Source: an uncultured Verrucomicrobiae bacterium (GTDB lineage Bacteria > Verrucomicrobiota > Verrucomicrobiia > Chthoniobacterales > Chthoniobacteraceae). From it: 64,000 nucleotides of DNA. Positions 332 to 54,100 of the stretch are shown here, one piece after another (within the stretch, counting starts at the first letter, position 1; each line of letters opens with the position of its first letter). Where the stretch lies: contig CAWIKF010000001.1 of assembly GCA_963836755.1 (NCBI GenBank), positions 704,001 to 768,000 of the forward strand, in the 5' to 3' direction. The notes beneath the pieces were generated by a model. It had not been told where the DNA came from, made no database searches, and saw only the letters and a list, made by a program, of their open reading frames with translations. A program made the translations under genes and the position numbers.

Positions 332-491
332 GCCTAACCAAGCGCTGCAGCGATGCGCCATCACGATTGTAGCCAGTTATCCCGCTCGGCGCGGTTTCGG
401 CATTGCTTCTTCAACGCGACAACCGAACGTCGCCTAACCATGCGCTGCAGCTAACAGGCTCCGCCTATAGCTGATCTTGTTCTCCTCAGGC
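332..491 (+). repeat. Two attC-like (integron cassette recombination site-like) elements, first truncated, second degenerate
   Basis: GCCTAACCAAGCGCTGCAGC at 332 and GCCTAACCATGCGCTGCAGC at 432 both start with an RYYYAAC R'' box. The second has inner inverted CAGCTA/TAGCTG and ends TGATCTTGTTCTC-CTCAGGC, a degenerate GTTAGGC R' box. Confidence 0.55.
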
Positions 492-492
492 G

Positions 493-624
493 GTTCAGAC
501 GCTTTTCCACACCTGCAATGAAAAGCCGCTGACTTCCGGTGCGGAGGTTGTTCTTTCCATCAACGCAGTCGGCTCTGCCGGCGTGAGTGACTGGAGCGAT
601 TACGGGAGCTTGATGGTGATCTAA
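493..624 (+). pseudogene. C-terminal remnant of a fibronectin-type-III-like protein gene
   Basis: Manual translation gives ...KPLTSGAEVVLSINAVGSAGVSDWSDYGSLMVI*, matching the FN3 last-strand pattern L-x-S/P-G...A-x-G-x-x-G-x-S-x-W-S. There is an in-frame TGA at 472 and no start codon. Confidence 0.45.
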
Positions 625-37902: not shown

Positions 37903-37985
37903 CGCGCGCAGATGAAACACGAAACCCGCGCGCATGAGAAAACAAAAATGCGATCACGCGAAAAAGCGTGCGCCTTTGGGAAACC

Positions 37986-38059
37986 CGCGCCCGGGGTGAC
38001 TCGAACACCCGACCGGCGGATTAGAAATCCGCTGCTCTATCCGGCTGAGCTACGGGCGC
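37986..38059 (-). tRNA. tRNA-Arg(TCT), CCA not encoded
   Basis: Reverse complement GCGCCCGTAGCTCAGCCGGATAGAGCAGCGGATTTCTAATCCGCCGGTCGGGTGTTCGAGTCACCCCGGGCGCG folds as a cloverleaf with anticodon TCT. Confidence 0.96.
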
Positions 38060-38218
38060 AAAGTGGATTTGAACCGCCGCAATATCGAAAGCCCGCGCCC
38101 CTCTGGCAATGCATTTCCGAAAAGTCTGCGCGCATTTTCCCCATTCGCACCGGAAGCAACCCAGCCTCGTCGCGGGTCGAACTTTCACGTCGGAGGTCAG
38201 ACGAGACGCGTCGGCAGC

Positions 38219-38547
38219 CGAATGCGCCATTTCCACCCGCGAACGATGCAGCTCGACACGCGAAGGATTGAGTTCCGCAGTCGGACGAGACAGCCCCGGA
38301 TGCGAAGCATTCAGCTACAGAGCCGAAGGATCCACCTACGAAAGAAGCGAAGGATCCAGCTACAAAGGCGAAGGATCCACCTACGAGAAAGCCTCAGCGA
38401 CGAACGATCCACCTACGAAATCGAAGAAATCAGCTCCCGCGACGAAGGATTCGCCTCCCGTTGCGAAGGATTCAGCTCCGCCGACGAACGCACCACCTGC
38501 AAAACCGCCCGCGACAGCTCCCGACTCGAGCGTTTTACTCTGTTAAA
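38219..38547. repeat. Degenerate 21-bp tandem array (about 15 units, consensus CGAAGGATYCASCTMC+N5)
   Basis: Units start at 38219, 38240, 38261, 38282, 38303, 38324, (24 nt) 38348, 38369, (32 nt) 38401, 38422, 38443, 38464, 38485, 38506 and 38527. Confidence 0.9.
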
Positions 38548-38591
38548 AAACAAAGCTGTGCGCCAGCGACGCCGGCCGATACCCTCGACCC

Positions 38592-39451
38592 ATGTCCGAC
38601 CCAACACCCACCCCAGCCCCGAAAAAACGCAAATCTCCAGCACCGCTCGACAGCAGGCTCATCGACCACCTGGAAAAAGACGGCGAAGTCGTCACCGCCA
38701 CTCTCGACGAGATGACTGCCGACGCAGCCTTCGCCGCCGCGCTCGCCCCGCATTTCCTCGACCGCGACAGGACACCATCAGCCATCAACCCCGGCGCAGG
38801 TATCCACCGCTGGCCGAAGGCCTGCGATCAATCTCACGGCGCTCTCGACACAGGTCTCCGACGCCCGCTCCATCGGGGCCGATGTCACCAGTGGCCGCGC
38901 AAAGTTTCACAGCGTCACAGACGATGAAGACGGCGATGAGGCTACCGCCATTGCAGCCATCCGCAACGTCCAAACCCGCGCAAAAGAAAAATACGAGGAG
39001 AGCGACCCGGCGCGGCTCGACGCCTATTACCTTGGCCAGCCGCTCCGCTCCCGCAGCCAGATCACGCAGGCCGGCGCCGCCGTTTACACCCTGCTGCGCA
39101 CGACCGACAACTCCGGCAATCCCGTCACCCCGCAAGACACGCTCCCCGGCTTCGGCGCCCCGCAAATCCTACAACTCAACGACTCGAGAACGTCTGCGGG
39201 CAGAGAGAGGCTTACAGGAGCTCAATGTAATAACCGACCTCGGCAGCTACGGCGGCGTCCAGACGACGCAAAGCGGCGCGCAGACCGATGCGAAACAAAG
39301 TTTGCAGGAATTTGAAGACGAATGCGACCAAATCAGCCGCCGCCGTCGCAAAGTCCAGCTCGCCGTCGATGCCGAACGCCCCTTCAGCAACCCGTCCAAC
39401 GGCCCGCTCCGCACCCGCCTGGGACTGCCCGCAGATCGCGGGATGGCATAG
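38592..39451 (+). pseudogene. Frameshifted hypothetical alpha-helical protein gene downstream of the 21-bp array
   Basis: Three consecutive frames with C-ending codons: MSDPTPTPAPKKRKSPAPLDSRL... / AINLTALSTQVSDARS...QDTLPGFGAPQILQLN / TDLGSYGGVQTTQSGAQ...RLGLPADRGMA*. The frame changes coincide with roughly 40-55 nt atypical segments. Confidence 0.7.
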
Positions 39452-39582
39452 GTCTTCCGCCATGGGAGAGCTATCGGATGAAGAAGGGTAGGACGTGGGA
39501 AATTTCGTCTCAACCTTCAAAGGCGACTCGCGTGGCTCCTTTGAATGTCACACTGCACCAGTTGCCGCCGAGCGGGGCTGCG

Positions 39583-40107
39583 CTAGTGCGCAGGCCGCTG
39601 TTGCCGCAAGGCGTCTTGCACCGGCCCCGGCAGTTTGTCGGCATTGTGCAAGAGCAGGCTCACCTGCCAGAGCTCATCATCGGAGAGCTTGCCACTGAAC
39701 GATGGCATGCCGCTAAAGCGGATGCCGTTCTTGATCACCCAGTGAGTTTCCCCGACTTGGTCATCCGTGACGCCCTTTGATGGCGGCAGCAGGTGCGGCG
39801 CGGCGGGATACATGCGTTTGCCGACACCGGACTGCGGGTCGCCGATCCGGCCGTGGCACCCGACGCAACCTCTCTCCTGGAAAACGTGCGCGCCGGCGAG
39901 AAGGTTTTGCTCGTCGGCTGGCAGTGGCGACTGCTCCCTCGACGCCTGGCCCATGGAGGAGGAAAGAGCTGCGTGCGCCAGCATTTTCTCCATCGGTAAC
40001 GCGTGTGCGTCGGTGCCCATGGCGATGCCGCCATGCGCGACGAACAAGTATTCTGCCAGCGCGAGGAGCGCGGCTCCGACGACAAGACCAATGATGAATT
40101 TCAGCAT
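39583..40107 (-). CDS. Membrane-anchored monoheme cytochrome c
   Basis: CVGCH heme motif, MYPAAPHL and WVIKNGIRFSGMPSF. Confidence 0.9.
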   Translation of the reverse strand: MLKFIIGLVVGAALLALAEYLFVAHGGIAMGTDAHALPMEKMLAHAALSSSMGQASREQSPLPADEQNLLAGAHVFQERGCVGCHGRIGDPQSGVGKRMYPAAPHLLPPSKGVTDDQVGETHWVIKNGIRFSGMPSFSGKLSDDELWQVSLLLHNADKLPGPVQDALRQQRPAH

Positions 40108-40125
40108 AGGTGTGGGTGCGCGCTG

Positions 40126-41094
40126 TTAATCCTGCGATTTTTGATTCGAACCTTCAGCATTGGTCAGGTCGAGCCCGCGGCGAAGCTCGGCCGCAAGCTT
40201 ATAGGCGTCACCCGTCTTGGCCATGTGGTCGAAGAAGAGTTGCGGCTGTTCGCCGGTTTCCTGGTTGTAAAGACAGCCCTGATACCAGCCGAGTTGATTC
40301 CGCATCAGCTTCACCACCGGCTGGATTTCTTTGGAAGTCATGGAGAAATCCGCCACGATCTGCGCCTGGTCGCCGCTGGTGGGATGGAATTCGATGTTCG
40401 TCGAGACGTTGGCCCGCGGGTTCGCGTGAACGCCGTCGATGGTGATCCGGTCCTTTCGCAACACCCAGACGGTGACGACTCCATTCTCGCCGACGCTGGC
40501 GTCGCCATGGAGGATATCGCCGAGGCGCTTCGAGTCGAGCGAGCTGCTCGGTTTCGAGGCCTTCTTCTGCGGGAGCGGAGTGCTGGTGGTGTCGAGCGCA
40601 TGGCGTATCCCGCGAGCGAGGGTGAGCGCGTCGCCGACGCCGCGGAAATGCACGAACCACACCTGCGGATGCGTCGGCAAATGCTGGTGGAAAGCCTCGA
40701 AGACGAGGCCATTCTCGATCAATGCGGAGATGAACGGGTTGACCTCTTCTTCCTTGAGACAAAGATCGCCGTTCACGAAGACGCGATCGTTCGAGAGCGG
40801 CTGGAATAGTGCTCCGCCGTCGAGCTCGAAAGACGGTTTCAAGGTGAGGCCGGTGCCGCGCGGGCCCTCGACCGATCCGATGTCCTTGCGCGCGATCTCC
40901 AGACTGAGCAGGCCGTGCTCCATTTCGCCCTCGAGGCCGAGGATGTCTTCGATTTGTGCCTTCGGCAAGCCTGCGTCCCCGGACCCGCTCTTGCCTTTCC
41001 CGCCGCTGTCTTGGTCCGCAGCACGCAGGAATGGCACGAACCCGAGCGAAACGCTCAGCAACAACAGTGCGCTGGCTTTGTAAAATGGCTTCAT
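40126..41094 (-). CDS. DUF1259 (LppY/LpqO-like) exported protein
   Basis: Signal peptide and a duplicated domain: GDLCL..EEVNP...AFHQH..P.VWFVH / ADFSM..KEIQP...LYNQE...PQLFFDH. Confidence 0.75.
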   Translation of the reverse strand: MKPFYKASALLLLSVSLGFVPFLRAADQDSGGKGKSGSGDAGLPKAQIEDILGLEGEMEHGLLSLEIARKDIGSVEGPRGTGLTLKPSFELDGGALFQPLSNDRVFVNGDLCLKEEEVNPFISALIENGLVFEAFHQHLPTHPQVWFVHFRGVGDALTLARGIRHALDTTSTPLPQKKASKPSSSLDSKRLGDILHGDASVGENGVVTVWVLRKDRITIDGVHANPRANVSTNIEFHPTSGDQAQIVADFSMTSKEIQPVVKLMRNQLGWYQGCLYNQETGEQPQLFFDHMAKTGDAYKLAAELRRGLDLTNAEGSNQKSQD

Positions 41095-41449
41095 AATCGT
41101 GTTGCCAGCCTTGCAGCGAGCCGGCTCCGCGGGCAACTGTGGCCGCTTGCACAATGGATCGCGCGGATCTTCCGCGCCGGTTCTACGAAACCTACGGATT
41201 TCCGAGTTTGCGGTTGCTCGCTTTCTCGGCATGCGCCAGGATGACACGATGATCGAGGACGGGCAAAGGCGTCCGCCAACCTAGCATTTGATGGTGACAA
41301 CTCCCGCCGCGACAGCTCGCGGCTCTGCCTTTCGCGGAGAGCGGAATGCGGTTTGCTGCCGCGCCTAGACATGAACGCGAAGTCTTTGCGCGCACCTTCC
41401 CACCCGAGGCTTTGCCTCATCAATGCTTCCTTTCATGATGCCGGGGCGA

Positions 41450-42535
41450 TTATTCCAGACCGAGCGAATCGAGGGTCGGCTCGTCGATGACGGCGGTGCG
41501 GTAGAGGCCGTTGTCGTTTTGGTAGCCGACGAGAGCTTCGCGGGTGAGCGGGCCGAGTAAGCCGTCCACTTCACCTTTGTAGTAACCTTGGTCTTGCAGG
41601 AGTGCTTGCACGTTTGCAATCACGCGATCGAGTGGCTCGGCGCGGTGGCCGACATAGATCGGTGCATCGTAAGGGTAGTATTCATGGGAAGTGTTGTAGC
41701 CCCAGGCCGGATACCAATAGCCGTTGTTCCAATAATAGTAGCCGCCACTGATAAGCTCCACGCGTTTGTAGTGGGAGTGGTAGTAGCCTGCATCGTGTCT
41801 CTCAGGATGATAGGAGCGATAGACTTGGTATCTCTCGCCTTGCCATTGATCGCTATTCTCAATGCGGCGATTCTCGGTGAAGGTGACGGGCGGAACCTTT
41901 TCCGGTTTTGGCTGTGCCTTAAAGCTGGCGTGTTCGGTTTTGACCTTCTGAATGGTCTGCACGTCTGGCTTCTTGGCATTGGCATGGACTTTGGGAGACT
42001 GTTCCTTAGTCGCTGCGGCTGGGGATGAAGCAGTCTCACTGGAAGCAGTAGGGCTGGCGGTCTTCTTTGCGGTCGTAGCTTCGGCGCCTGTCTTCTGATT
42101 CTTCTTGTGCTTGCCGCCTTGTTTTTGTTCGGCGGAGACTGCCGATGGAGTGGGATTCGCCACGGTTGATTCGTCGGTTTTTGACGAGGTGTGGGATGTG
42201 CCTTCAGTGGTCGCTGGGGTCTTTCCTTCGCCGTGCTTCTTGCCCGTGGGCACGGGTTTCGCCGCATGTTTCGCTTCCTTGGCGGTTTGAGCTTCGTTTT
42301 CGCTCTGGGCCTGCTGAGCGGGTTTTTCCACGGCTGCGCGTTCCTTTGACGCGTGGGCTTCGGCGGCGCCCTTCCCCTCGGTGAGAGGCTTGGCCTGGAC
42401 GGCATGTTCCTGTGCCGAATGGTCTTTACCTTGGTGTTTCTTTGTCGCTGCGGGCGACTCTTCGGGCTGCTGGGCCTGCAAGTGGGCGGTCAGCGCGAGC
42501 GAAGAGGCAATCAAGAGGGTGAGAAGTTTTTTCAT
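41450..42535 (-). CDS. Secreted low-complexity protein with C-terminal peptidoglycan-binding domain
   Basis: Signal peptide, K/A/T/S-rich region, Tyr/Trp-rich segment and VQALLQDQGYYKGEVDGLLGPLTREAL..YQ (PG_binding_1). Confidence 0.85.
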   Translation of the reverse strand: MKKLLTLLIASSLALTAHLQAQQPEESPAATKKHQGKDHSAQEHAVQAKPLTEGKGAAEAHASKERAAVEKPAQQAQSENEAQTAKEAKHAAKPVPTGKKHGEGKTPATTEGTSHTSSKTDESTVANPTPSAVSAEQKQGGKHKKNQKTGAEATTAKKTASPTASSETASSPAAATKEQSPKVHANAKKPDVQTIQKVKTEHASFKAQPKPEKVPPVTFTENRRIENSDQWQGERYQVYRSYHPERHDAGYYHSHYKRVELISGGYYYWNNGYWYPAWGYNTSHEYYPYDAPIYVGHRAEPLDRVIANVQALLQDQGYYKGEVDGLLGPLTREALVGYQNDNGLYRTAVIDEPTLDSLGLE

Positions 42536-43019
42536 CTTATTCCTTTCAGTCAGTAGGTTTGTATCTGAGGTTCTACTGCGCCATAGGAGCAAAGTTGCTC
42601 GTTCTGTAGCTGTGAGTGGCGAAAGGGATTCGATGCTTCTACGCTTTTTGGTCCTCTCTATGTCGAGATGATTCGTGATGAGGGCAAAATCCCTTGCGAA
42701 TCCGCTGATAAAACGTCGCTGTATGGCTCGACCGCAACCGAAACGGGACGTATTTCGCCGCAGTGAAAGTCCGCGGCGAGTAGATAAAGCGGTTCGCTCA
42801 AGACGGACGATTCCATGCTTGCCAAAGTGTCGGCTGTCGGAATTGCGCACGGAAGCGGAAAGCTCGCGGAGAGATTGTATGGCGCGCGTTCGTGATTCGT
42901 GGTCTCCGCCTTTTTTACCTCAATCAAATCTGCGGCATCGACAAAACCCGCGGCAGCTTGTCAACTTTGTGACCCGGCGGCGTATTACATGATCACGCCA
43001 AGCTTCCCAATAAACTAAC

Positions 43020-44309
43020 ATGTCCCAAACCACCACAATGCCCCGCCTTTTCCAAGCCCTCGCGGCGATCGCCTGCTTCTCCTGCGTCACTCTTCCAGCG
43101 TTCGGCGAGACGAGAACGTTGGTATTGACCTCGCCAAAAGATGACGATCATTTTGAGGTGACGAAGCCGCTGTTTTTCTGGGACTCCTTACCGGCGGCGC
43201 AAAAATACGAGGTTTACGTCGATGATGCGAAGCTGGGCGAGGTGCAGGCTGCTTCGATTCCGGTCTTGCACTTCGCGGCGCCTCAGCCTCTTCCGGTCGG
43301 GACGCATCATTGGGTTGTCAAAGCTATTCCCGCCCAAGGCGATGCCGTTTCTTCGAGCCCATCTGCGTTCACCATTGATCCTCCGGGCAATTGGCCGGCG
43401 TGGGCGATTGGGCCGTTCGAACGGTATGGGGGAAATCCGATTCTCCGACCGCAAGGCAGCGGCTGGGAACAAGTTAATACCTACAATCCCGGTGTCCTAT
43501 TTAGAAACGGGAAGTTTCTCATGCTCTATCGTGCGCAAGGTCAAAAGGTAGGCGCGACGAAGGTAAATCCGGACCGCATCTCACGCGAGGGCTATGCTGA
43601 AAGCGTCGATGGAGTGACCTTCGTCCGGAAACCCGAGCCGGTGATCGATGCCACCGAATCGTTTGAAAAGCTCTACGGCTGCGAGGATGCGCGTTTGTTC
43701 GAGAAGGATGGCGTTTATTACGCCTTCTACACCGGCAATGGAAAGGGCGGCATCGCAATTTGTGAGGCGACCTCTGCGGACGCAATCACGTGGAAAAAAT
43801 TGGGACCAGTCGTCCAAGGGACGAAAAACGGGGCCATGGTCATTGATCCCAATGGCACGCCGGTTCAAATCAACGGAAAGTATGCGATGTTCGTCGGGAA
43901 CTCCGGCTTCGGAGTCTGCTACTCCGACGACCTTCTTACGTGGAGCCCAGTTACAAAAATCGACATGATGCTTCCGCCAAATTGGGTCAAGCCGTATGAG
44001 CCTTGCATCGCCGTCGCGAACTACTCAAGCGCAAAGCCCGATGACATCGTTCTATTTATCGCGGGCACGTTGAACGGGAAAGGCAAGTGGTTCTACGCCA
44101 TTTCCGAAACCTTGTTCTCCAAGCAGGATCTCACCAAAAAAGTCGATCAACTGGACGACTGCATTATGAAAGCGAGGGAACCCTATGAGAGCGGCACGTT
44201 CCACAATTGTCTCTGGATGAACTGCATCATTCAGCACGAGGGAGAGTGGATGATGTATTACGGCGCGGGTGATCGGAATGTCGGGCTGGCTACCGCTCCT
44301 GTGAAGTAG
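43020..44309 (+). CDS. Secreted GH130-like beta-propeller glycosidase with N-terminal Ig-like domain
   Basis: GNPILRP, YNPGV, MLYRAQ, GCEDARL, KNG and MYYGAGD. Confidence 0.8.
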   Translation: MSQTTTMPRLFQALAAIACFSCVTLPAFGETRTLVLTSPKDDDHFEVTKPLFFWDSLPAAQKYEVYVDDAKLGEVQAASIPVLHFAAPQPLPVGTHHWVVKAIPAQGDAVSSSPSAFTIDPPGNWPAWAIGPFERYGGNPILRPQGSGWEQVNTYNPGVLFRNGKFLMLYRAQGQKVGATKVNPDRISREGYAESVDGVTFVRKPEPVIDATESFEKLYGCEDARLFEKDGVYYAFYTGNGKGGIAICEATSADAITWKKLGPVVQGTKNGAMVIDPNGTPVQINGKYAMFVGNSGFGVCYSDDLLTWSPVTKIDMMLPPNWVKPYEPCIAVANYSSAKPDDIVLFIAGTLNGKGKWFYAISETLFSKQDLTKKVDQLDDCIMKAREPYESGTFHNCLWMNCIIQHEGEWMMYYGAGDRNVGLATAPVK

Positions 44310-44368
44310 TTGCCCGAGATATGGGCGCGTAGCGGCAACTCGCTCAGGACCTTGACGCTAGGCGAAGG

Positions 44369-45268
44369 TTACTGGCTGCCGACGCCGGCGACGCGCATGC
44401 GCAATGCGAATAGATTCTTGCTGGCCGTCATGAAAAGCGTGTGCCGGTCTTTACCGCCGAAGCAGATGTTGCCGACCCAGCCGCGCTCGGGCATCTCGAT
44501 TTTCTCGATCTGTTTTCCGTCGGAGTTAAAGACGGTGACTTGGTCGCCGGTGAGATAGACATTGCCCTCATTGTCGATGGTCATTCCATCGGAGCCCATC
44601 TCGCAGAAAAGCGTTTTGTCCTGCAGCGAACCATCGGGCTGAATGTGGTAGCGATAGGTTTTTTTCGCGCCAATGTCGGCAACGTAGAGAATTTTCCCGT
44701 CGGGCGTTCCGATGATGCCGTTGGGGCTTTTGAGATCCGTGGCGACGGGCACGAGCCGTTGGCGATCGGCGGAGAGGAAGTAAACGTGCTGTCCTGTCTG
44801 CTCCATCGGGCCTCGATGCCAGTAGTTGCGCTTGTAAAATGGATCGGTGAAATAAAGGCCGTCGTCGGGGCGCACCCAGATATCGTTCGGGCCGTTGAGC
44901 AGTTTGCCCTGATAATCCTTCACGACGACCTCGACTTTGCCGGCCTTGTCGATTTTCCAGAGCTGGTTTTTTTCATCGGCGCACGCCCAAAGATTTTCAT
45001 GCAAGTCAAAGCAGAGGCCGTTCGACCGGCCGCACGGCTGCATGAAAGTCGTGAGCTTGCCGTCCGTGCTCCATTTCATGATCCGATCGTTCGGCTGGTC
45101 AGTGAAATAGACATCGCCCGCGCGAGTGCTCGCCGGGCCTTCGGTGAAAAGAAAACCGCCGGCCAGCTTTTCGATTTGCGCGCCCGGCGCGATGATTTGG
45201 GATTGCACGGTGTGGAGTGAAACGCAGAAAGCGAAAACTTTAAACAACTGAAGGGCGCCGTTTTTCAT
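44369..45268 (-). CDS. SMP-30/gluconolactonase family protein
   Basis: FTEGP, SNGL, LNGPND, YFTDP, PNGI and DGMTID. Confidence 0.92.
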   Translation of the reverse strand: MKNGALQLFKVFAFCVSLHTVQSQIIAPGAQIEKLAGGFLFTEGPASTRAGDVYFTDQPNDRIMKWSTDGKLTTFMQPCGRSNGLCFDLHENLWACADEKNQLWKIDKAGKVEVVVKDYQGKLLNGPNDIWVRPDDGLYFTDPFYKRNYWHRGPMEQTGQHVYFLSADRQRLVPVATDLKSPNGIIGTPDGKILYVADIGAKKTYRYHIQPDGSLQDKTLFCEMGSDGMTIDNEGNVYLTGDQVTVFNSDGKQIEKIEMPERGWVGNICFGGKDRHTLFMTASKNLFALRMRVAGVGSQ

Positions 45269-46983
45269 GACGCTCGCCCGCTTTCGCGAAGCAGCGACGC
45301 GACGGCTTGCAATTTTTTCTTGAGCGCAGGCTCGGTGCGCCACTGCGCGATCGTGTGCGGGAGGCGCTGGCTCCAGTTGGCATCGGCGATGGCGCCGGGC
45401 GTGTTGAAGCGCTGGTCGCTGCCGAAAATATCGGTAATCATCGCCACAGCAATCCATGAACGGCTGTTAAACAAAGCGCGCAGCAACTTTTCATGCAGTT
45501 CGTCGCTCCACGGCTGCGGTTCGCGCAGGTCGATGTGCGCGAACGCGGCAAATTTCCGCAGCTCCTCCCAGGCGCCGTGGCTCTCGCCCGTGCGCGCCTT
45601 TGCGACTTTGAACAGCCGCTCCCAGCGCGCCTTCAGCGGCTCGTGATCGTGCGTCGCGTAGGTCGCGAGCGAGAGCGGCTGATACTCCGCGCCGTCGATG
45701 AGCCAGCCGTCGTTTCGTTTTTCCCACATCGGAATTTTGAAGCCGGGAATGCCGAGCGACGTGAGATTCGGCCGCACATACGGCGGCACCGTGCCGAGGT
45801 CTTCGCCGACCAGCCGATGCTCCCCTGTTTCCTCGAGCAACACCTTCAGCAGCTCGTCGCCGTGTGCGCGATTTTGCTCGCAATGCGCGGGCGTGTCGTC
45901 CGGCCGCTCGATGAAACGCGGCAGCTCGCCGCCGGTCTTCGCGCGCGCCTGCTCGTGCGTGAGCGGGAGGAATGCGTCGTTCTCCGGCGGCCGCCACGGG
46001 AAGCAGTAGATGCGGTAAAAACCGAGCACGTGATCGATGCGGAAAATGTCAAAAATCTCGCGCACGGTGCGAACGCGATTGCGCCACCAGGCAAAGTTGC
46101 TATCGCGCATCACGTCCCAGCGGTAGAGCGGCACGCCCCAATTTTGACCCCACTTTTGCGTGAAGGCATCGTCCTTAAAATACGGCTCGGGCGGCGCGCC
46201 ACCGCTCCATTTCAAATCGAAAAGCTCCGGCTGACCGAAGACATCGGCGCTGTAATAACTCACGCCGAACGGCACGTCGCCCATCAGCGCGATTCCTCGC
46301 GAAGCCGCATAGGCACTGGCTTCGTGCCATTGTCCGAATGCGATCCACTGGACGTATTTGTAAAAGCGCATCCGCTTTTCAAACTCCTTCCGACGCTTCA
46401 CGGGCAGCGCGGCGATCCACTCCGCGGCGGCCGCGGCGGACTTCTGGTGCGCCGGCCAAAGGTCCCAGCGTTCGTTGACGCCGTTCTCTTCCATCAGCAC
46501 GCGGAAGAGCGCATAGCCCTCGAGCCAGCACGCCTGCCCGTGGACGAATGCGCGGAATTTGCGCGCGCGCGTCGTGTTCTTGCCGAGCTCGTTTTTGGAA
46601 AAATTTTCAAACGCGCGCGCGAGCAGTGCAAGTTTCAGGCGTTTAACATCGGGATAAACAACCGGTCCTGTGCGCAACTTTTTCAAATCCACTTTTTTCA
46701 GCTGCGCCGCGAATTCATCGGCGGGCAAATCCGCGAGCGAGTCGGATGAAATGAAAATCGTCGCCGGCTCCAGCGCGACGGAGCTCACCGCCATGTAAGG
46801 ACTGTTGTCGCCGCCCGTTTCATTGATCGGCAAAAGCTGCACGAGCCGGATGCCCGCGTCCGCTGCCGCGTCGATTAATTCGCGCAGGCTGCCGACATCG
46901 CCGATGCCGAGATCGTTTTCAGTCCGAAGCGCGAAGAGCGGCGTGAGAAGGCCGGCGATCGGTTGGGCGGGGGATAGTTCCAT
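45265..46983 (-). CDS. malQ: 4-alpha-glucanotransferase (amylomaltase, GH77)
   Basis: GIGD, QLLPIN, SPY, GQNWG.PLYRW, RIDHVLGFYR, GEDLG, ATHD and RFNTPG. Confidence 0.95.
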   Translation of the reverse strand: MELSPAQPIAGLLTPLFALRTENDLGIGDVGSLRELIDAAADAGIRLVQLLPINETGGDNSPYMAVSSVALEPATIFISSDSLADLPADEFAAQLKKVDLKKLRTGPVVYPDVKRLKLALLARAFENFSKNELGKNTTRARKFRAFVHGQACWLEGYALFRVLMEENGVNERWDLWPAHQKSAAAAAEWIAALPVKRRKEFEKRMRFYKYVQWIAFGQWHEASAYAASRGIALMGDVPFGVSYYSADVFGQPELFDLKWSGGAPPEPYFKDDAFTQKWGQNWGVPLYRWDVMRDSNFAWWRNRVRTVREIFDIFRIDHVLGFYRIYCFPWRPPENDAFLPLTHEQARAKTGGELPRFIERPDDTPAHCEQNRAHGDELLKVLLEETGEHRLVGEDLGTVPPYVRPNLTSLGIPGFKIPMWEKRNDGWLIDGAEYQPLSLATYATHDHEPLKARWERLFKVAKARTGESHGAWEELRKFAAFAHIDLREPQPWSDELHEKLLRALFNSRSWIAVAMITDIFGSDQRFNTPGAIADANWSQRLPHTIAQWRTEPALKKKLQAVASLLRESGRAS

Positions 46984-47073
46984 TGCGCGGACAATACGAA
47001 ATCGCGCGGAAAAGCGAAGCGGACTTCCGCAAACTTTCATCCGCGGCAACCCGGCGCGCCTTTGCTGATGCCG

Positions 47074-47700
47074 TCAAAGTTTGATCAAGCCATGCCGAAT
47101 CGCGTAGCGCGTGAGGTCGGCCGTCGTGCGCAGGCCGAGCTTGCACTTGAGATTGCCGCGATGATTTTCCACCGTTTTCACCGAGACGCTGAGGCGCGTC
47201 GCGATCTCTTTGTTGCTGCGGCCTTCGGCGATTAATTGCAGCACCTCTCGCTCGCGATGCGAGAGATCGCGCTGCTCGTCCGGCGTGCTCGCATCGAAAA
47301 GAAACTTTGACGCGAACGGCGTGAAGAAGCTGCAGCCGTGCAGCATCGCGCCGACTGCCTCGCGAAAAGTTTCCAGCGAATCCGACTTTGAAACGAACGC
47401 CGCCGGCTTTGATTTCAGCGCGCGCAGCACCAGCGCCGCATCGCACGGTCCCGCAAAAATCAGCGCGCGCGTCGGCCCGCCATTTTCGCGCAGCCGCCGC
47501 AAAACTTCGGTGCCGCACAGCTCCGGCAGCATCAGGTCGAGAATCAAAATTTCCGGCTGCTCGCGTTCGCAAAATTCCAGCGCCGCGAGTCCTGACTCGA
47601 GCTGCGCCACCACCGTCACGTCGAAATCTTTGCGCAACATCGATGCGATCAAATTCCGGAACGAACGTTGTGCATCTGCAATGGCCACTCGTTTTTTCAT
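47074..47700 (-). CDS. NarL/LuxR-family response regulator
   Basis: REC domain (ILILDLMLP) plus HTH LSHREREVLQLIAEGRSNKEIA...KTVENHR. Confidence 0.93.
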   Translation of the reverse strand: MKKRVAIADAQRSFRNLIASMLRKDFDVTVVAQLESGLAALEFCEREQPEILILDLMLPELCGTEVLRRLRENGGPTRALIFAGPCDAALVLRALKSKPAAFVSKSDSLETFREAVGAMLHGCSFFTPFASKFLFDASTPDEQRDLSHREREVLQLIAEGRSNKEIATRLSVSVKTVENHRGNLKCKLGLRTTADLTRYAIRHGLIKL

Positions 47701-47885
47701 CCGCCGCCTTTTGTTGGATTTAGGGAAACGCAGCCTCCGCTACCGAAACTAACGCGTCGGCCACCGTCGCCTTCGTGTAAAACAAACTGCTGCACGATGG
47801 AAGATTAATTTAGGTATTTTTTCCCGACGCAACCGAGGGGAACTACCCATTCCGCCGCGCGCTGCTCGGCTCTACAACCATTCGC

Positions 47886-48734
47886 ATGCCTCCCGGACGT
47901 GCCCGCGGTAAAAACCTTCGTGTAACAAACGTCAACTCCCACGGCCTCGGCTGGGCGCCCGATCTCCCGGACCACCGCGATCATGTTTACGGCGCGCCCC
48001 TCGCAAAACTCACCGCCGCCAAACCGCTCCCGGCCCGAGCCGACCTCACCGCGCAATGCCCTCCCGTTTACGACCAGGGCCAGATCGGCAGTTGCACCGC
48101 CAACGCCATCGCCGCCGCGCTGGAGTTTGATTTGAAAAAGCAAAAGCTCGCCGACTTCGTCCCGTCGCGCCTCTTCATCTATTATAATGAGCGCGCGATC
48201 GAGCACACCACAGGCACCGACTCCGGCGCACAGATTCGCGACGGTATCAAAAGCGTCGGCAAACAAGGCGCATGTCACGAAACCGAGTGGACCTACGACG
48301 ACACCTCCGCCGACCCTAACACCGGCGTCTGGCCCGCGGGCGCCAAGCCCGCCGAAAAGCCGCCACGGAAATGCTACACCGACGCGCGCAAATTCAAGGC
48401 CCTCGCCTACGCCCGCGTCAACCGCGACCTCGCGCAGATGAAAGGCTGCCTCGCGAGTGGCTACCCCTTCGTCTTCGGCTTCACCGTTTACGATAGCTTC
48501 GAAAGCGCCGCCGTAGCCAAGTCCGGCCAGCTCGACATGCCGGCGTCCGGCGAACAAGTCGTCGGCGGCCACGCCGTCCTTTGCGTCGGCTACGACGACT
48601 CCGCGCAGCGCTTCACCGTCCGCAACAGTTGGGGACCGAAATGGGGACTCAAAGGCTACTTCACCATCCCCTACGCCTACCTCCTCGACACCAACCTCAG
48701 CGACGATATGTGGACCGTCCGCACCGTCGCCTAG
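47886..48734 (+). CDS. Papain-family (C1) cysteine peptidase
   Basis: DQGQIGSCTANA (Cys), SRLFIYYNER, GGHAV (His) and RNSWG (Asn). No signal peptide. Confidence 0.93.
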   Translation: MPPGRARGKNLRVTNVNSHGLGWAPDLPDHRDHVYGAPLAKLTAAKPLPARADLTAQCPPVYDQGQIGSCTANAIAAALEFDLKKQKLADFVPSRLFIYYNERAIEHTTGTDSGAQIRDGIKSVGKQGACHETEWTYDDTSADPNTGVWPAGAKPAEKPPRKCYTDARKFKALAYARVNRDLAQMKGCLASGYPFVFGFTVYDSFESAAVAKSGQLDMPASGEQVVGGHAVLCVGYDDSAQRFTVRNSWGPKWGLKGYFTIPYAYLLDTNLSDDMWTVRTVA

Positions 48735-48755
48735 TTTTTCAAAAACGTTTCCCCC

Positions 48756-49790
48756 ATGCCCAAATACTGGCTCATCAGCGATCGCAACAACGGCCCCGGC
48801 GGTATCGGAACCGGCACAGGCCGCAACGTCCCCGGCCTCACCTACTTCGTCAGCGACGGCGGGCCGTTGAACAACATCGCCAACTGGAAAAAAGTTTCCC
48901 ACGACCAATTCCAGAAGCTCCTCTCCGCCGCCGCCGACTCCTTTCCCGCATTGCCGCAGGGCGAAAACGAAAACCAGAGCCACGTCACCATCCTCATCCA
49001 CGGCTTCAACGTCAGCTTCGACCATTCCACCAGCTTCTACGAGCAACTCTGCGGCAAACTCTTCGACGGCCCAGACAGCCTCGGCCTTTGCATCCTCTAC
49101 GACTGGCCCTCGCTCGGCAACGTCGTCGGCTACGAACCCGACCGCGCCATGGCCCGCGCCTGCGCCGGCGACCTCACCGACATCCTCAGCGAGCTCTTTG
49201 ACTGGCTCATTAAAAAACAGCAAACCGCCATCAACAGCGACGGCGACCCCCAGAAAGCCTGCAAGGCCAAAGTCTCCGTCATCGCCCACAGCATGGGCAA
49301 TTACGTCCTGCAAAAAGCCATGGCCGCCGCCTGGACACGCAAAAACCAGCCGCTCCTCGTCAGCCTCATCAACCAGCTCCTCATGGTCGCCGCCGATGTC
49401 GACAACGACCTCTTCGACACCGGCGCGCCCGACAACGACGACGGCGGCGCCATCGACAACCTCACCTACCGCATCACCGCCCTCTTCAGCGGACGCGACG
49501 CCGTCCTCGGCTCCTCCGCCGGCTTGAAACATTTCGGCACCCGTCGGCTCGGGCGCAGCGGCCTCGCGCACGAGCCGCCCCTCGTCACGCAACTGCCCGC
49601 CACCGACAACGTCTGGGACATCGACTGCTCCAGCTTCTTCCCGCCGAGCGTCAATGGCCTGAACATCCACGGCGCATATTTCGTCACCGACAGCGTCATC
49701 GCCCTCATGCGGCAGATCTTGAAAGGCCTCGACCGCGGCGTGCTCGAGACCACCGGCGTCACGACCGGCCACGCATGGCCCGTTTCCTAA
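48756..49790 (+). CDS. Alpha/beta hydrolase, DUF900-like
   Basis: IHGFN, DWPS, nucleophile elbow AHSMG, AADVD, RLG and HGAYF. Confidence 0.85.
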   Translation: MPKYWLISDRNNGPGGIGTGTGRNVPGLTYFVSDGGPLNNIANWKKVSHDQFQKLLSAAADSFPALPQGENENQSHVTILIHGFNVSFDHSTSFYEQLCGKLFDGPDSLGLCILYDWPSLGNVVGYEPDRAMARACAGDLTDILSELFDWLIKKQQTAINSDGDPQKACKAKVSVIAHSMGNYVLQKAMAAAWTRKNQPLLVSLINQLLMVAADVDNDLFDTGAPDNDDGGAIDNLTYRITALFSGRDAVLGSSAGLKHFGTRRLGRSGLAHEPPLVTQLPATDNVWDIDCSSFFPPSVNGLNIHGAYFVTDSVIALMRQILKGLDRGVLETTGVTTGHAWPVS

Positions 49791-49844
49791 AAATGAAAAG
49801 CCCCAGCCTTCGCGCCTGATCAAACTTTTCCGCCAAACCCCCCA

Positions 49845-50558
49845 GTGCCGCGCAGTTACTACCAAATGATCATCCCCATGAACGTCGACGTCGACGGCGC
49901 GCCAAACGCCTACGGCCCAGCCGGCCTCCCGACCCTCGACGACGAGCGGAACGCCCGCTATTGGGTCAACCGCCAGCCCACCGACCGCGTCGCAGGCTAC
50001 CGCACCCACGACGGCACATGCCGCACCCCCATTTTACAAGGCCCCGCCGACCCGTTCCCCGGCTACTACATCTCCACCAGCGGCTACGAAGACATCCGCA
50101 ACGCCAACGAAAACGACCCGCGCCGCTACGTCAACGCCGCCGAAATCAACTACACCGTCCTCGGCACCGCCGCCCAGCAAGCCGGCGTCCTCCCCGGCGA
50201 CTTCTGCACCGTCCACAGCCTCCGCACCCGCTTCGTCGCCTACGCCATCGTCGGCGACACCGGAAACTCCAGCGGCGCCGAAGGCTCCCTCGCACTCCTC
50301 CAGCGCCTCGGCTACACCGTCCGCGACGGCCGCTCCGGCTCCGTCGAGCAGGCCGAAATCGTCGTCCGCCACTTCCCCGGCTCCAATCCCGCCCACCTCT
50401 TCTTCCACACACAGGCCGATCTCGAAGACGCCGCACGCAGCCTCGATCTCGACATCGACTTCTCCGAGTTCCATCCCGGCGACCCCGGCAAACTCATCCT
50501 CCAGGCCGTCGCCGCCGGCGACCCCGCAGCAGGCCAGCCCGGCACGGCACAAATTTAA
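49845..50558 (+). CDS. GH75 (chitosanase)-like glycoside hydrolase
   Basis: MNVDVDGA, RYVNAAEINYTVL, GDFCTV and YAIVGDTG...EGSLAL. Confidence 0.65.
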   Translation: MPRSYYQMIIPMNVDVDGAPNAYGPAGLPTLDDERNARYWVNRQPTDRVAGYRTHDGTCRTPILQGPADPFPGYYISTSGYEDIRNANENDPRRYVNAAEINYTVLGTAAQQAGVLPGDFCTVHSLRTRFVAYAIVGDTGNSSGAEGSLALLQRLGYTVRDGRSGSVEQAEIVVRHFPGSNPAHLFFHTQADLEDAARSLDLDIDFSEFHPGDPGKLILQAVAAGDPAAGQPGTAQI

Positions 50559-50559
50559 C

Positions 50560-50853
50560 ATGAGCCACCTCCTCGTTCGGCAAAAAGTAGCCGACTTCCG
50601 CCACTGGAAACGCGCCTACGACGCCCATCGCCCCGCGCGCGAATCCGCCACCCTGCACGAAATCGCCCTCTTCCACGATCAGGAAGAGCCCGACAACATC
50701 CACGTCCTTTTCAAAGTGGGCGACTCGGAAAAAGTCCGCGCCTTCATCGCGTCGGAAGATCTGCGCGAAACCATGCGCACCGCCGGCGTCATCGACACCC
50801 CGAGCATCCACTTCCTCACCGCCGCCTCCGCCGCGAAGCTGCCCTCAAACTAG
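50560..50853 (+). CDS. Small dimeric alpha/beta-barrel ('cyclase'-annotated) protein
   Basis: LVRQKVADFRHWKRAYD...LRETMRTAGV..P.I.FL. Confidence 0.7.
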   Translation: MSHLLVRQKVADFRHWKRAYDAHRPARESATLHEIALFHDQEEPDNIHVLFKVGDSEKVRAFIASEDLRETMRTAGVIDTPSIHFLTAASAAKLPSN

Positions 50854-50867
50854 GAACGGATCGACCT

Positions 50868-51476
50868 ATGCGCTCCCCTTACACCGGCATCCTTCTATCA
50901 CTCTTTACATGCATTGGTTCGGGAAACACCAATGCGGGTCAAAGGCTGATCGCTGACCCTGTAAAGGACTTCATCGCGGATGGACACCATTTTCGGAAGG
51001 ACATCCCGCTACTACGCATCGACGTCGACATGAACAACGATGGCTACAAGGAAACCCTCCTCTCATGGGCCGATGAGACCGATGGCCAGCAAGGCAACAT
51101 ATGGTTCGTCTATAAAGGAACTAAAAAGGGATATGTGAATCTCAACAACATCATTGAGTTTCATGGCGACTGGTTTTCCATTCGCTACATTGGGCGCCTG
51201 GGCTGCAAAGGCCTGGTTGCTTATTCCAGAGGGGGAGGCCGTATCGGGACCTATATCGCCTACGTGATCAAAGGAGACCGCGTCATCGACGTCCAGCTGG
51301 AGGGTCTCGGCATGTATGATTCGGACAAAAAGCGTGAAGCTTTAAGCAGAAAGTATTTCGGAATCATTGAGGGAGATACGGCTCTCAAGACTCCTGCCCC
51401 CGTGAAGGAACTCTACCCGCCCGAACTGGCCGCCAAATATCACCTGCCGCTGATTTACCATCCACTCCCATGGTAA
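50868..51476 (+). CDS. Hypothetical exported protein, low-GC
   Basis: 202-aa ORF with a hydrophobic N-terminus, a DMNNDGYKE Ca-binding-like loop and A/T-rich codons unlike its flanks. Confidence 0.7.
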   Translation: MRSPYTGILLSLFTCIGSGNTNAGQRLIADPVKDFIADGHHFRKDIPLLRIDVDMNNDGYKETLLSWADETDGQQGNIWFVYKGTKKGYVNLNNIIEFHGDWFSIRYIGRLGCKGLVAYSRGGGRIGTYIAYVIKGDRVIDVQLEGLGMYDSDKKREALSRKYFGIIEGDTALKTPAPVKELYPPELAAKYHLPLIYHPLPW

Positions 51477-51515
51477 TGATTGCCCCAACCATCCGATGGG
51501 CTCTTCCTGCGCCGC

Positions 51516-51788
51516 TTCTTCCGCACGGCAGACTCCTCCTGCCGCACGGTGGAACGACTTCACCGCACGGTGGAATGGAGTTACCGCACGGGAAAACCAA
51601 TGTTTGGACGCGGCGAAGCGTTCTGCCATGCGGTGGAGCGGTTCCACCGTCCGGCAGCAGCGTTCCACGGCGCGGCAGGATCATTTCACCGCACGGCGGG
51701 ACGGTTCTGCCGTGCGGCAGGAGGAATCAACCGTGCGGCAGAATCATTCTACCGTGCGGCAGAATCATTTCACCGCAGCCGCCTGTCT
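51516..51788. repeat. Degenerate 21-bp tandem array of palindromic units (13 units)
   Basis: CCG-(CA/TG)-CGG cores or variants at 51521, 51542, 51563, 51584, (51605), 51626, 51647, 51668, 51689, 51710, 51731, 51752 and 51773. Consensus TTCYRCCG-NN-CGGYRGAA-NNN. Confidence 0.92.
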
Positions 51789-51876
51789 CTGTAGACGGCT
51801 CGGAAGTGTAGCGAAAGCATACAGAACTCGAACCAACTAACAACGCAGTCAGTTTACCAATAGAAACCAAAAAATT

Positions 51877-52575
51877 ATGGCAAAATCAGATTTCGTCGAC
51901 TCGAACGACGACAAGTTTTCGGCGCAACAGCAGGTCTACAAAACCAATATCCCCAGCTACGCCACCGACCTCGGCGTGACCCCGGCTCAAGTGGCATCGC
52001 AAGCGGCGGATGCCAATTACTTCACCTACATCATCGCCTGCCAGGAGATCATGCAGAACGCGGCGCAGCAATGGACTTCCTGGAAAGACCTCATCCGCGA
52101 CGGCGGCACGCCTCCCGCCGCCGGCGCCCCGGTGCTGCCGGTCTTCCCGCCGGTCGTCGCCTCCGTGGCGCCCGGCGTCGAATCGCGCTACCGCGCACTG
52201 GTGAAACAAAATAAAAGCAAGACCAACTACAACGATTCCATCGGACAGGCCCTCGGCACAGTCGGCGCAGAACAAACCGCGCCTGATCTAACCACAGTGC
52301 AACCCGAACTCGACGCCAAAATCAGTGGCACCACCGTGAATGTTGGCTGGGGCTGGGGTGGCAACAGCGCCTTCCTCGACATGATCGAGCTACAAGTCGA
52401 TCGCGGCGACAGCAAAGGCTTCGTCATGCTGGCCTACGACACCACGCCCAACTACACCGACACCGCCCCATTCCCCGCCACGCCCGCGAAGTGGACCTAT
52501 CGCGGCATCTACCGCGTCGGCGACAAACAAGTAGGCCTCTGGAGCAAGCCGGTGAGTGTGACGGTGGGTGGGTAG
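51877..52575 (+). CDS. Hypothetical protein: helical N-terminus plus C-terminal FN3/Ig-like domain, downstream of the 21-bp array
   Basis: 232 aa with no signal peptide; ends W.YRGIY...VGLWSKPVSVTVGG. A-rich leader before the ATG. Confidence 0.85.
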   Translation: MAKSDFVDSNDDKFSAQQQVYKTNIPSYATDLGVTPAQVASQAADANYFTYIIACQEIMQNAAQQWTSWKDLIRDGGTPPAAGAPVLPVFPPVVASVAPGVESRYRALVKQNKSKTNYNDSIGQALGTVGAEQTAPDLTTVQPELDAKISGTTVNVGWGWGGNSAFLDMIELQVDRGDSKGFVMLAYDTTPNYTDTAPFPATPAKWTYRGIYRVGDKQVGLWSKPVSVTVGG

Positions 52576-52604
52576 TTCAAGATATAGAACTTACTGTGAA
52601 AACC

Positions 52605-52749
52605 GATATCGAAACCAGCACGCCACAGCGCAACGACTTCCAACCCGCCCGACCTCGGCAAGGCCATCTATTATGCCCTCCGCTGGAGCGGAACCAAAGG
52701 CGACCCCGGCCCCTGGAGCGCGGTGTATACAGCCGTGGTGCCTGGATAG
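52605..52749 (+). pseudogene. Orphan C-terminal fragment of a second FN3-like gene
   Basis: DIETSTPQRNDFQPA(+1 at about 52650)DLGKAIYYALRWSGTKGDPGPWSAVYTAVVPG*, with no start. Confidence 0.65.
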
Positions 52750-52772
52750 GAAGCGACCTAGGAGCTCAAAAT

Positions 52773-53762: not shown

Positions 53763-53776
53763 CGGCAAGCCTGTCA

Positions 53777-54100
53777 ATGACCACATTTGAGGTGAAGATT
53801 CCTGCCGGACAGACTGTCGACGTCGCCCAATACGTCAATATGTCCGGCACGTTGAATATTCTAATTCGCACTCGTGATGGTTCTAATCACCTTCCTGCTT
53901 GTTGGTGGATCGCTTGGGGTTTTGGCTCCGTGTCTCAGTTGGGAGAGCATAAAGACCATTTTACTACGGATATTCCGGTTAGTTGGTGGCGAGGAGTTGT
54001 GCATGCCAAACTTCGAGCATCCGCAGATGATACTGACACCGTCTTAACGATCGGGGAAAACGGAGAGCTAGATTTCAGCAAAAGTTTTACGTGGCCTTGA
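53777..54100 (+). CDS. Hypothetical protein, low-GC
   Basis: MTTFEVKIPAGQ...SFTWP*, starting 14 nt after the lipoprotein stop. Confidence 0.6.
   Translation: MTTFEVKIPAGQTVDVAQYVNMSGTLNILIRTRDGSNHLPACWWIAWGFGSVSQLGEHKDHFTTDIPVSWWRGVVHAKLRASADDTDTVLTIGENGELDFSKSFTWP

Follow-up and report, generated by a model that had tools for sequence, protein, structure and literature searches.

Tandem arrays with a 21-bp period precede genes of two small-protein families in a verrucomicrobial genome

The window, i.e. the whole stretch of 64,000 nt that was analysed, contains two tandem arrays with a 21-bp period. Each array is followed on the same strand by a gene of one of two families, here called F1 and F2, and two further gene remnants are present:

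38219..38547, + strand: array 1, about 15 degenerate 21-bp units CGAAGGATCCACCTACGAAAG, without dyad symmetry and with register slips of 24, 29 and 18 nt
38534..38545, + strand: junction motif TTTACTCTGTTA, at the end of array 1 that faces the gene
38592..39451, + strand: F2 pseudogene (all-helical family), split into pieces in three frames (38592-38777, 38830-39297 and 39230-39445)
51516..51788, + strand: array 2, 13 x 21 bp with consensus TTCTGCCGTGCGGCAGAATCA, dyad-symmetric at 16/21 positions, the most conserved part being a CCG-N2-CGG core
51783..51794, + strand: junction motif CTGTCTCTGTAG, at the end of array 2 that faces the gene
51877..52575, + strand: intact F1 gene (product P0001, 232 aa); predicted structure with a helical hairpin (11-32, 36-74), a proline-rich linker, short helices (101-113, 120-126) and an FN3 domain (146-230)
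475..624, + strand: FN3 C-terminus remnant of an F4-type member, with 53% identity (E 3e-9 vs all ORFs) to the C-terminal 45 aa of C2:1250097-1250717
52600..52749, + strand: FN3 C-terminus remnant of another family member, with 44% identity (E 3.6e-4) to the C-terminal 32 aa of C2:2229027-2229692

The initial annotation had proposed both arrays, their 21-bp period and their positions ahead of a small gene, and self-match and TRF confirmed all three. In array 1 (329 bp, about 15.7 units) the self-match was highest at lag 21 (0.53), with 0.48 at lag 42 and 0.41 at lag 63, and TRF returned period-21 rows at 38302-38386 and 38422-38488. The corresponding self-match values of array 2 (273 bp, 13 units) were 0.59, 0.53 and 0.51, and its TRF rows had periods of 21, 42 and 84. 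The distance from the array end to the next ATG is 45 nt for array 1 (38592) and 89 nt for array 2 (51877). Both arrays are intergenic. Their units follow each other head to tail without spacers, unlike CRISPR arrays, which combine identical repeats with unique spacers, and a tRNA was the only Rfam match in the window. The unit sequences of the two arrays, CGAAGGATCCACCTACGAAAG and TTCTGCCGTGCGGCAGAATCA, are unrelated, as had been claimed. The accompanying statement that units keep their length applied to array 2 with its 13 units of 21 bp but not strictly to array 1, in which the anchor spacings were 42, 21, 24, 21, 29, 24, 21, 21 and 18. In array 2 it is the best-conserved unit positions that form the dyad.

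A distance of 21 bp corresponds to two helical turns of B-DNA and also to seven codons. Three mechanisms had been suggested for the arrays, namely phased binding sites, a structured RNA and a heptad peptide; phased binding sites, as a prediction, fit the data best. If the array were transcribed, a string of RNA hairpins could serve as partner or regulator of the downstream protein. Array 2 together with its leader folded more stably than any shuffled version (z = -8.06; 0/100 shuffles as good), which is due to the palindromic nature of its units, and transcription has been proposed for related repeats in the accessible text of PMC8161180. Array 1, however, showed no excess structure (z = +0.66), and the dyad symmetry of the five F2 arrays of this genome was below the random mean; genome-wide, 12/55 arrays exceeded the 95th percentile of random dyad symmetry. 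RNA structure is thus not a property shared by the two arrays, and we consider an RNA partner very improbable. RNA evidence was looked for over 50860-52780, and no record was listed. Hypervariable heptad-repeat peptides encoded by the arrays are hardly credible. Arrays within alaS, ispG and other genes are indeed translated as heptads, array 2 can be read through in each of the three forward frames, and array 1 is covered by a 145-aa ORF. Yet the conservation in array 2 is dyad-symmetric and lacks a 3-base period, and array 1 contains a 29-nt slip, which disfavours a peptide. Furthermore, orthologous arrays slip out of register, and a dicodon-based gene caller chose no ORF over either of the window arrays.

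When the downstream genes were analysed, the gene at 38592, previously described as a gene of about 230-260 aa, turned out to be broken. It matches an intact paralogue in three pieces and three frames and therefore contains at least two frameshifts. In this module both partners are decayed, the array by slips and the gene by frameshifts. The idea of a single helical or FN3-containing gene type also had to be abandoned: F1 and F2 are unrelated (hhalign probability 0.6%), and FN3 is found only in the product of 51877. A weak local match of a basic helix between the two families (hhalign E = 0.1) was not relied on. For P0001, the C-terminal half of the model was identified as FN3 (Z 11.5, rmsd 2.0 A over 90 residues to 6pok_A); FN3 made up all of the top 50 rows of the structure search, and Foldseek was concordant. 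At the sequence level P0001 itself stayed below the Pfam fn3 threshold and the PDB gave nothing (best E = 2). PHROGs were matched solely through FN3, BFVD likewise (TM at most 0.36), and the Atlas search yielded only unnamed verrucomicrobial clusters. The F2 model, a long helical bundle, had no significant match in the PDB (best E = 0.15, generic helical bundles).

Neither F1 nor F2 matched a Pfam family, and the 21 array-linked proteins had no Pfam match except fn3. In the Pfam, PHROG, PDB sequence and model searches no DNA-binding domain was found in F1 or F2 proteins, nor any sequence or fold match to a solved helical DNA binder. Ribbon-helix-helix and HTH folds were absent from the PDB search matches, which scarcely covered the N-terminal half of P0001. 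The median pI is 4.85 in F1, whose proteins are acidic (P0001, 4.82), and 6.1 in F2. Judged by eye, the proteins have no signal peptide. A comparison of the A1 query with viral contigs gave no relative.

Both FN3-like remnants noted earlier proved to be real when aligned to the C-termini of intact ORFs of the genome. The remnant at 475-624 is located about 1.2 kb downstream of a further array (C1:702966-703252), which lies just before the window. Together with the decayed copy at 38592, the remnants corroborate the suggested turnover of these modules.

Altogether, about 65 arrays with a period of 20, 21, 41 or 42 bp are present in this 3.18-Mb verrucomicrobial genome, and their 21-bp periodicity is beyond chance. 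In a whole-genome scan (self-match >=0.55) the best lag was 20, 21, 41 or 42 in 58/59 regions, and 124 of the 128 TRF rows of at least 100 bp had a period in the 20/21 series. The 65 arrays form 13 multi-copy motif clusters and 23 singletons, i.e. several unrelated families coexist in one genome, and several motif families have 3-8 copies. Modules were not enriched per motif cluster: a module was present in 9/13 clusters, where chance would give about 8.6, and a scheme with one protein per motif cluster was rejected on this basis. Mobilisation by a REP/RAYT-IS200 system was rejected as well, since the only clear Y1_Tnp gene (C2:2206408-2206746) has 34-bp hairpins of its own on either side, and these bear no relation to the arrays. 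About 45 of the 65 arrays lack an F1/F2-type small gene, and a real gene remnant was found beside only 4/48 non-module arrays. Some gene-less arrays are followed by ordinary genes, e.g. thyA-like and esterase-like ORFs. In at least four cases the array forms a translated, in-frame part of a housekeeping gene (alaS, ispG, nrdJ and an acrB-family gene); most of the other arrays are intergenic.

The question whether arrays are scattered independently of the gene families therefore has a divided answer: this is so for the gene-less arrays and for those in housekeeping genes, yet all 13 family loci of the genome possess an array. Within 500 bp upstream, arrays were found at 8/8 F1 and 5/5 F2 loci, compared with 64/2717 ORF-based gene calls (Fisher p = 2e-22). 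In other genomes, the best upstream period was 21 or 42 at 18/23 F1 loci. Among the F2 loci, an upstream period of 21, 42 or 43 was detected at 19/23, including 16 of the 20 foreign ones, and a downstream array was seen at none of the 46 F1/F2 loci. Homologues thus do have adjacent 21-nt arrays, and the proposed recurrence of an array with a small gene was upheld in this genome and in others. F1 paralogues carried an array in 3/3 cases in a same-genus genome and in 3/5 cases in other lineages; an FN3/F4-type relative at C1:551554-552186 has none. Over the 23 F1 loci and the window no neighbour was conserved except the F1 gene itself, and two same-genus genomes have no cassette in the syntenic interval. 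Array and gene are the sole co-inherited pair.

Regardless of unit sequence, 22 of the 65 arrays end with the junction motif TTTACTCTGT[AT]G, both window arrays included. Since the motif is common to arrays with unrelated units, it suggests that a common factor is involved, not one specific to the cassette. One or a few host factors might then recognise the two-turn spacing and read the arrays as upstream regulatory elements, with the small genes as the most frequent cargo, whose products have a role unrelated to DNA. The ordinary genes behind gene-less arrays and the acidic proteins without a DNA-binding fold are in line with this explanation, which we consider possible but doubtful. However, the motif of arrays A5 and A60 sits at the end distal to the F1 gene, and that of A22 comes before the array. 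The strict motif is also missing from the foreign loci (0/18 F1, 0/19 F2), even though arrays are kept there. A scan restricted to sigma-70 promoters revealed no forward one between array 1 or array 2 and its gene. Host factors would, moreover, have to read unit sequences that differ wholly between arrays, yet a half-site is conserved among orthologous cassettes.

In the P0001 clade, this palindromic half-site, CGGCAGAA, is kept among genomes in which the proteins are only 60-66% identical and the leaders cannot be aligned. Allowing at most one mismatch, it occurs 6-14 times upstream of the gene in the window and at loci L001, L002, L003, L013 and L018, compared with 0.3-0.5 times in shuffled sequence and 0-1 times downstream. 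The identity of the window leader to the leaders of these loci (0.46-0.57) is like that of shuffled sequence (0.50). The unit sequence is thus under selection. Conservation of the half-site in orthologous cassettes despite differing units calls for cassette-specific recognition. Close F2 relatives and array 1 have GGATCCACCTCC-like units in common. Overall, the period is fixed and the unit sequence varies between cassettes. Protein identity and unit similarity were correlated (Mantel r = 0.30, reached by 0/2000 permutations), and co-inheritance alone would account for part of this correlation. Unit similarity exceeded random only at a protein identity of at least 65%, in a bin that includes one duplicated locus (L010 = G202:C44). 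Differing units were found in L004 (61% identical) and in the G236 copy (E 1e-103 to the profile).

The half-site also bears on a second alternative, selfish satellite DNA that spreads or expands alone, e.g. by replication-coupled insertion and slippage, the link to genes resulting from co-transfer or preferred landing sites without any recognition between protein and array. The 65 arrays with their motif families of 3-8 copies, the in-frame insertions in essential genes, the patchy distribution of F1 (4/301 sampled genomes of the phylum) and F2 (10/201 of the order) and the strand bias of the junction motif (17 vs 3, p = 0.003) are all in line with such DNA. It does not account for arrays that lie exclusively on the 5' side of 13/13 family genes here and of most homologues, nor for half-site retention at 60-66% protein identity, and we judge it unlikely. 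Growth of arrays from the junction-motif end was rejected, as only 9/17 arrays were more homogeneous there, and the absence of such a gradient speaks against the selfish explanation too. The GC skew of the genome was too weak for placing the origin.

We tentatively favour a mobile cassette that consists of phased predicted binding sites and their cognate protein and has moved between places and lineages. The 21-bp repeats would be the sites, two DNA turns apart, for the protein encoded alongside, and a dimer or higher oligomer of this protein may read each unit. The 21-bp spacing would put the bound copies on one helix face and could thereby create a cooperative nucleoprotein tract, which might control how the cassette itself is expressed from the promoter-like junction immediately behind the array. 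Gene-less arrays with the same core motif may be further targets, or relics of cassettes that have lost the gene. Candidates for such targets are the GCAGAA-N3-TTCTGC arrays at C1:311018, C1:345921, C2:110730 and C2:641156. Array 1 with its frameshifted gene would represent a cassette in which both halves are decaying together. It is also conceivable, although rather improbable, that the pair forms an autonomous satellite element, in which a small protein of a new fold class reads its own 21-bp unit and maintains or spreads the arrays. Gene-less arrays dispersed over the chromosome, including the in-frame ones in essential genes, would then be the traces of such an element, comparable to the MITEs left by transposases. 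If true, a repeat class found in many phyla would gain a named partner and a reason for its constant length.

A conserved, cassette-specific protein beside the arrays makes the partner question testable at the bench, with a 232-aa protein and a 273-bp DNA. Binding by P0001 would, if true, establish families of DNA-reading proteins and a type of mobile element that are both new, and would also account for the heptads inserted in essential enzymes. Without binding, some other cause would have to be sought for the strict 5' linkage.

Among known systems, the geometry of array 2 resembles the tandem ARG boxes of ArgR, which consist of an 18-bp palindrome plus 3 bp, with centres 21 bp apart on one helix face. 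ArgR uses two ARG boxes, whereas array 2 has 13 units and no ArgR-like protein is present here. In iteron replicons (R6K, P1, pSC101), 17-22-bp iterons lie beside the gene of their binding protein Rep, and changes in the repeat sequence go along with changes in the protein. In our case, too, direct repeats with a spacing of about two turns adjoin a gene, but by Pfam there is no winged-helix Rep or replication function, the 21 array-linked proteins include no Rep initiator, and 13-15 units per array and about 65 chromosomal arrays are found. The plasmid centromere parC (R1, pSK41) comprises tandem phased repeats upstream of the gene for ParR, which coats them cooperatively and autoregulates. 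The position of phased tandem repeats directly 5' of a gene is shared with this system. Unlike in ParR/parC, a partner NTPase gene is missing (Pfam detected no actin-like or Walker-type NTPase gene among the 18 ORFs at 34216-55522), and dozens of elements lie on the chromosome. The predicted folds (helical hairpin with FN3, long helical bundle) also differ from ribbon-helix-helix, and F1 is acidic.

The initial annotation recognised no named system, but the arrays fit the constant-length 20-21-nt tandem repeats of bacteria described by Subirana and Messeguer, a class called enigmatic and reported from many bacterial groups (PMC8161180). In the accessible text of that article a binding protein is suspected and none is named, no function is given, the words 'upstream' and 'adjacent gene' do not occur and no gene family is linked to the repeats. 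Our literature search found no link of such arrays to a gene family either; J Bacteriol 2020 202:e00229-20 may bear on this point. Shared features, as far as the accessible text goes, are the fixed period of 20-21 nt (two helical turns) with varied sequence, unrelated families within one genome and a short conserved core per family (PMC8161180). The repeats described there are mostly non-coding; here both window arrays and most others are intergenic, and at least four arrays are translated in frame. The host is a member of the Verrucomicrobiota and not Bacillus. A further difference from the accessible text is the link, across genomes, of the arrays to two protein families without a name (PMC8161180). 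Because the pairing seen in the window recurs across this genome and in distant relatives, the F1 and F2 proteins are likely candidates for the missing partners of this enigmatic class of constant-length repeats.

The initial annotation had described two 21-bp tandem arrays just upstream of small cytoplasmic genes, and this arrangement was confirmed in the source genome (3.18 Mb in four contigs, the window being C1:704001-768000). Self-match of array 1 (38219-38547) and array 2 (51516-51788) peaked at lag 21 (0.53 and 0.59, respectively) with lags 42 and 63 next, TRF reported period-21 rows in both, and the array ends lie 45 nt (array 1, ATG at 38592) and 89 nt (array 2, ATG at 51877) before the start codon. 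The claim that units keep their length held for array 2, whose 13 units are in perfect register, whereas array 1, with the unit CGAAGGATCCACCTACGAAAG, showed register slips of 24, 29 and 18 nt. The array 2 consensus TTCTGCCGTGCGGCAGAATCA is an 8-bp inverted repeat with a 2-bp centre plus 3 bp; it is dyad-symmetric at 16 of 21 positions, and conservation is highest at CCG-N2-CGG. No dyad symmetry was found in array 1 by the unit symmetry test. A structured non-coding RNA, as had been proposed, is not shared by both arrays: the folding z-score is -8.1 for array 2 and +0.7 for array 1. Back to back with array 1 lies tRNA-Arg(TCT) (37985-38060, minus strand) with a sigma-70-like promoter match at 38081-38109 (minus strand), at a distance of about 110 bp from the first array unit.

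The gene behind array 2 defines family F1:

51877-52575, P0001 gene, 232 aa

P0001 has 742 database relatives, all unnamed and none with a Pfam domain; many share 63-77% identity with it and its exact length of 232 aa. In the AlphaFold model (pLDDT 88.6), a helical hairpin (residues 11-32 and 36-74) is followed by a proline-rich linker, a pair of short helices and then a beta sandwich. By structure comparison the sandwich is an FN3 domain (Z 11.5 with an rmsd of 2.0 Å over 90 residues), in agreement with a second structure search; the N-terminal half, which was barely covered, gave no match. At five F1 loci (L002, L003, L005, L007, L013) the reading frame extends about 144 nt further upstream than the P0001-like start codon, adding some 48 N-terminal aa that the window copy lacks. 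This extension includes a conserved stretch, W..DPN...LEPGDPG, and a PKPKRPK-like tail of basic residues, resembling the N-terminal PAPKKRKSP tail of family F2.

As judged from its reading frames, the F2 gene at 38592 is a pseudogene, with frame 1 ending in a stop after 111 codons and the intact paralogue C2:1698816-1699586 aligning to it in three pieces and three frames. F2 has 39 database relatives; those of both families are Verrucomicrobia or Chthoniobacterales records. The paralogue is modelled as an elongated bundle of helices (pLDDT 87.1), two of which span about 56 residues each; the model has no significant match in the PDB. The earlier assignment of both window genes to one helical(/FN3) kind was not upheld, as profile comparison detected no homology between F1 and F2 and the model of the F2 paralogue is all-helical. 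The genes separating the modules (Pfam: cytochrome c, GH130, gluconolactonase, 4-alpha-glucanotransferase, LuxR-type response regulator, C1 peptidase) are ordinary chromosomal genes, so that there are two independent cassettes 13 kb apart rather than one system.

When the flanks of homologues in public genomes were analyzed, 18 of 23 F1 loci had a best upstream period of 21 or 42 with a self-match of at least 0.52, and a nineteenth (L001) had a short period-21 row upstream by TRF; the other four were L016 and three partial-gene fragments. For F2, an upstream array was present at 19/23 loci (16/20 foreign ones). Downstream arrays were found at none of the 23 loci of either family. Arrays accompanied all three F1 paralogues of a same-genus genome, one of them being the L010 contig itself, and three of five F1 loci in more distant lineages. 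Distribution of both families is patchy, with several copies in genomes that have them: F2 was found in 10/201 genomes sampled from the order and F1 in 4/301 from the phylum. Two same-genus genomes retain the flanks of cassette 2, the C1 peptidase gene and the 54164 gene, but lack cassette 2 and all the other genes that lie between them in the window. Together with the lack of any flanking gene common to F1 loci, this points to the array plus its gene as the unit that is inherited and moves. The stretch 48756-54100 is variable cargo. A tandem repeat with a period of 162 bp (L010:3404-4296, 5.5 copies) directly follows the F1 gene of a same-genus genome, and four of the 23 foreign F1 loci contain, some hundreds of bases before the 21-bp arrays, perfect tandem repeats of 8 bp with differing units (7-14 copies, 98-100% matches):

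L001:231-314, 8-bp tandem repeat
L011:1580-1694, 8-bp tandem repeat
L014:1803-1856, 8-bp tandem repeat
L021:1601-1673, 8-bp tandem repeat

The self-match scan of the whole source genome yielded 59 regions, 58 of them with a best lag of 20, 21, 41 or 42, and merged TRF rows gave 65 arrays (median length 211 bp). Profile searches identified eight F1 and five F2 loci; each of the 13 is preceded by an array within 500 bp (at C1:654954-655643 detected only by the self-match scan), against 64 of 2717 genes in our own ORF-based calls. The module therefore recurs, but arrays also occur without it: about 20 of the 65 precede a small helical or helical+FN3 gene without Pfam family (F1/F2 and further such ORFs), and the remainder adjoin unrelated genes or sit within genes. 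Real family remnants lie within 1.5 kb of 4/48 non-module arrays, leaving out two further matches that are the candidate genes themselves, and of 1/191 random regions. The related helical+FN3 (F4-type) gene C1:551554-552186 (plus strand) is intact, with a strong AAGGAG ribosome-binding site, and the 800 bp before it contain no array; its C-terminus shares an identical 17-aa stretch with the remnant at window 475-624. A REP-type origin of the arrays was rejected, as the hairpins of the sole Y1 (IS200-like) transposase gene (C2:2206312-2206767, minus strand) are its own and unrelated to the arrays; a GC-rich hairpin of 34 bp flanks it on both sides in inverted copies, as in REP-associated transposases.

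Four arrays lie in frame within genes, where they are read as heptad repeats and split the Pfam domain matches:

C1:61211-61430 (L083), in alanyl-tRNA synthetase
C2:799696-799941 (L084), in an AcrB-family transporter
C2:1021285-1021511 (L085), in GcpE/IspG
C2:52301-52484 (L086), in class II ribonucleotide reductase

For intergenic arrays, the heptad peptide of the initial annotation is unlikely according to the unit conservation and register analysis.

A junction motif, TTTACTCTGT[AT]G, marks one end of 22 of the 65 arrays, often with a TTTTC/TTTTTG element about 16-18 nt upstream:

38534-38545, junction motif of array 1
51783-51794, junction motif of array 2

Its strict 8-mer has 61 copies genome-wide, 19 at arrays. 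This strict form was absent at 18 foreign F1 and 19 foreign F2 loci; the motif is lineage-specific. It lies on the plus strand right of the array in 17 cases, mirrored in three (17 vs 3, p = 0.003) and inverted in two; GC skew was too weak to relate this bias to replication. At arrays A5, A60 and A22 it is not on the gene side. The motif may function as a promoter, or it may be a site linked to the way arrays are deposited. The in-frame IspG array is preceded by the same motif as intergenic arrays.

The half-site CGGCAGAA (at most one mismatch) occurs in 6-14 copies upstream in the window and at five loci with proteins 60-66% identical to P0001, against 0.3-0.5 in shuffles and 0-1 on the downstream side; similarity of the 90-nt window leader to the leaders of those loci was no higher than to shuffled sequence. 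Other orthologues (53-61% identity) have different palindromes, some with a GAATCATTC centre, and the copy in another genome, G236, very similar to the F1 profile, has yet another unit. Units resembling GGATCCACCTCC are common to array 1 and close F2 relatives. Unit similarity correlated with protein identity over 26 loci (Mantel r = 0.30, reached by 0/2000 permutations), a signal from pairs of at least 65% identity with one duplicated locus included.

We favour phased binding sites, two helical turns apart, that would be read by the cassette's own protein, because the two-turn period is fixed, cores are dyadic, half-sites are conserved and cassette-specific, and no other gene is co-inherited. 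Several results stand against this: the F1 family is acidic, with a median pI of 4.85; the cassette proteins show no recognised DNA-binding fold; and arrays far outnumber genes. The original observation is confirmed, its interpretation supported in part.

The nearest functional analogues are centromere, iteron and operator arrays beside the gene of their binding protein, and none of the membership tests placed the cassette in one of these classes. Our literature search found no link of such arrays to an adjacent gene family, and upstream or adjacent genes are not mentioned in Subirana and Messeguer (PMC8161180). The window and genome arrays fit the constant-length 20-21-nt repeats described there, which those authors call enigmatic and for which they suggest an unknown binding protein or small RNAs; this known but unexplained repeat class gains a concrete, testable candidate partner protein.
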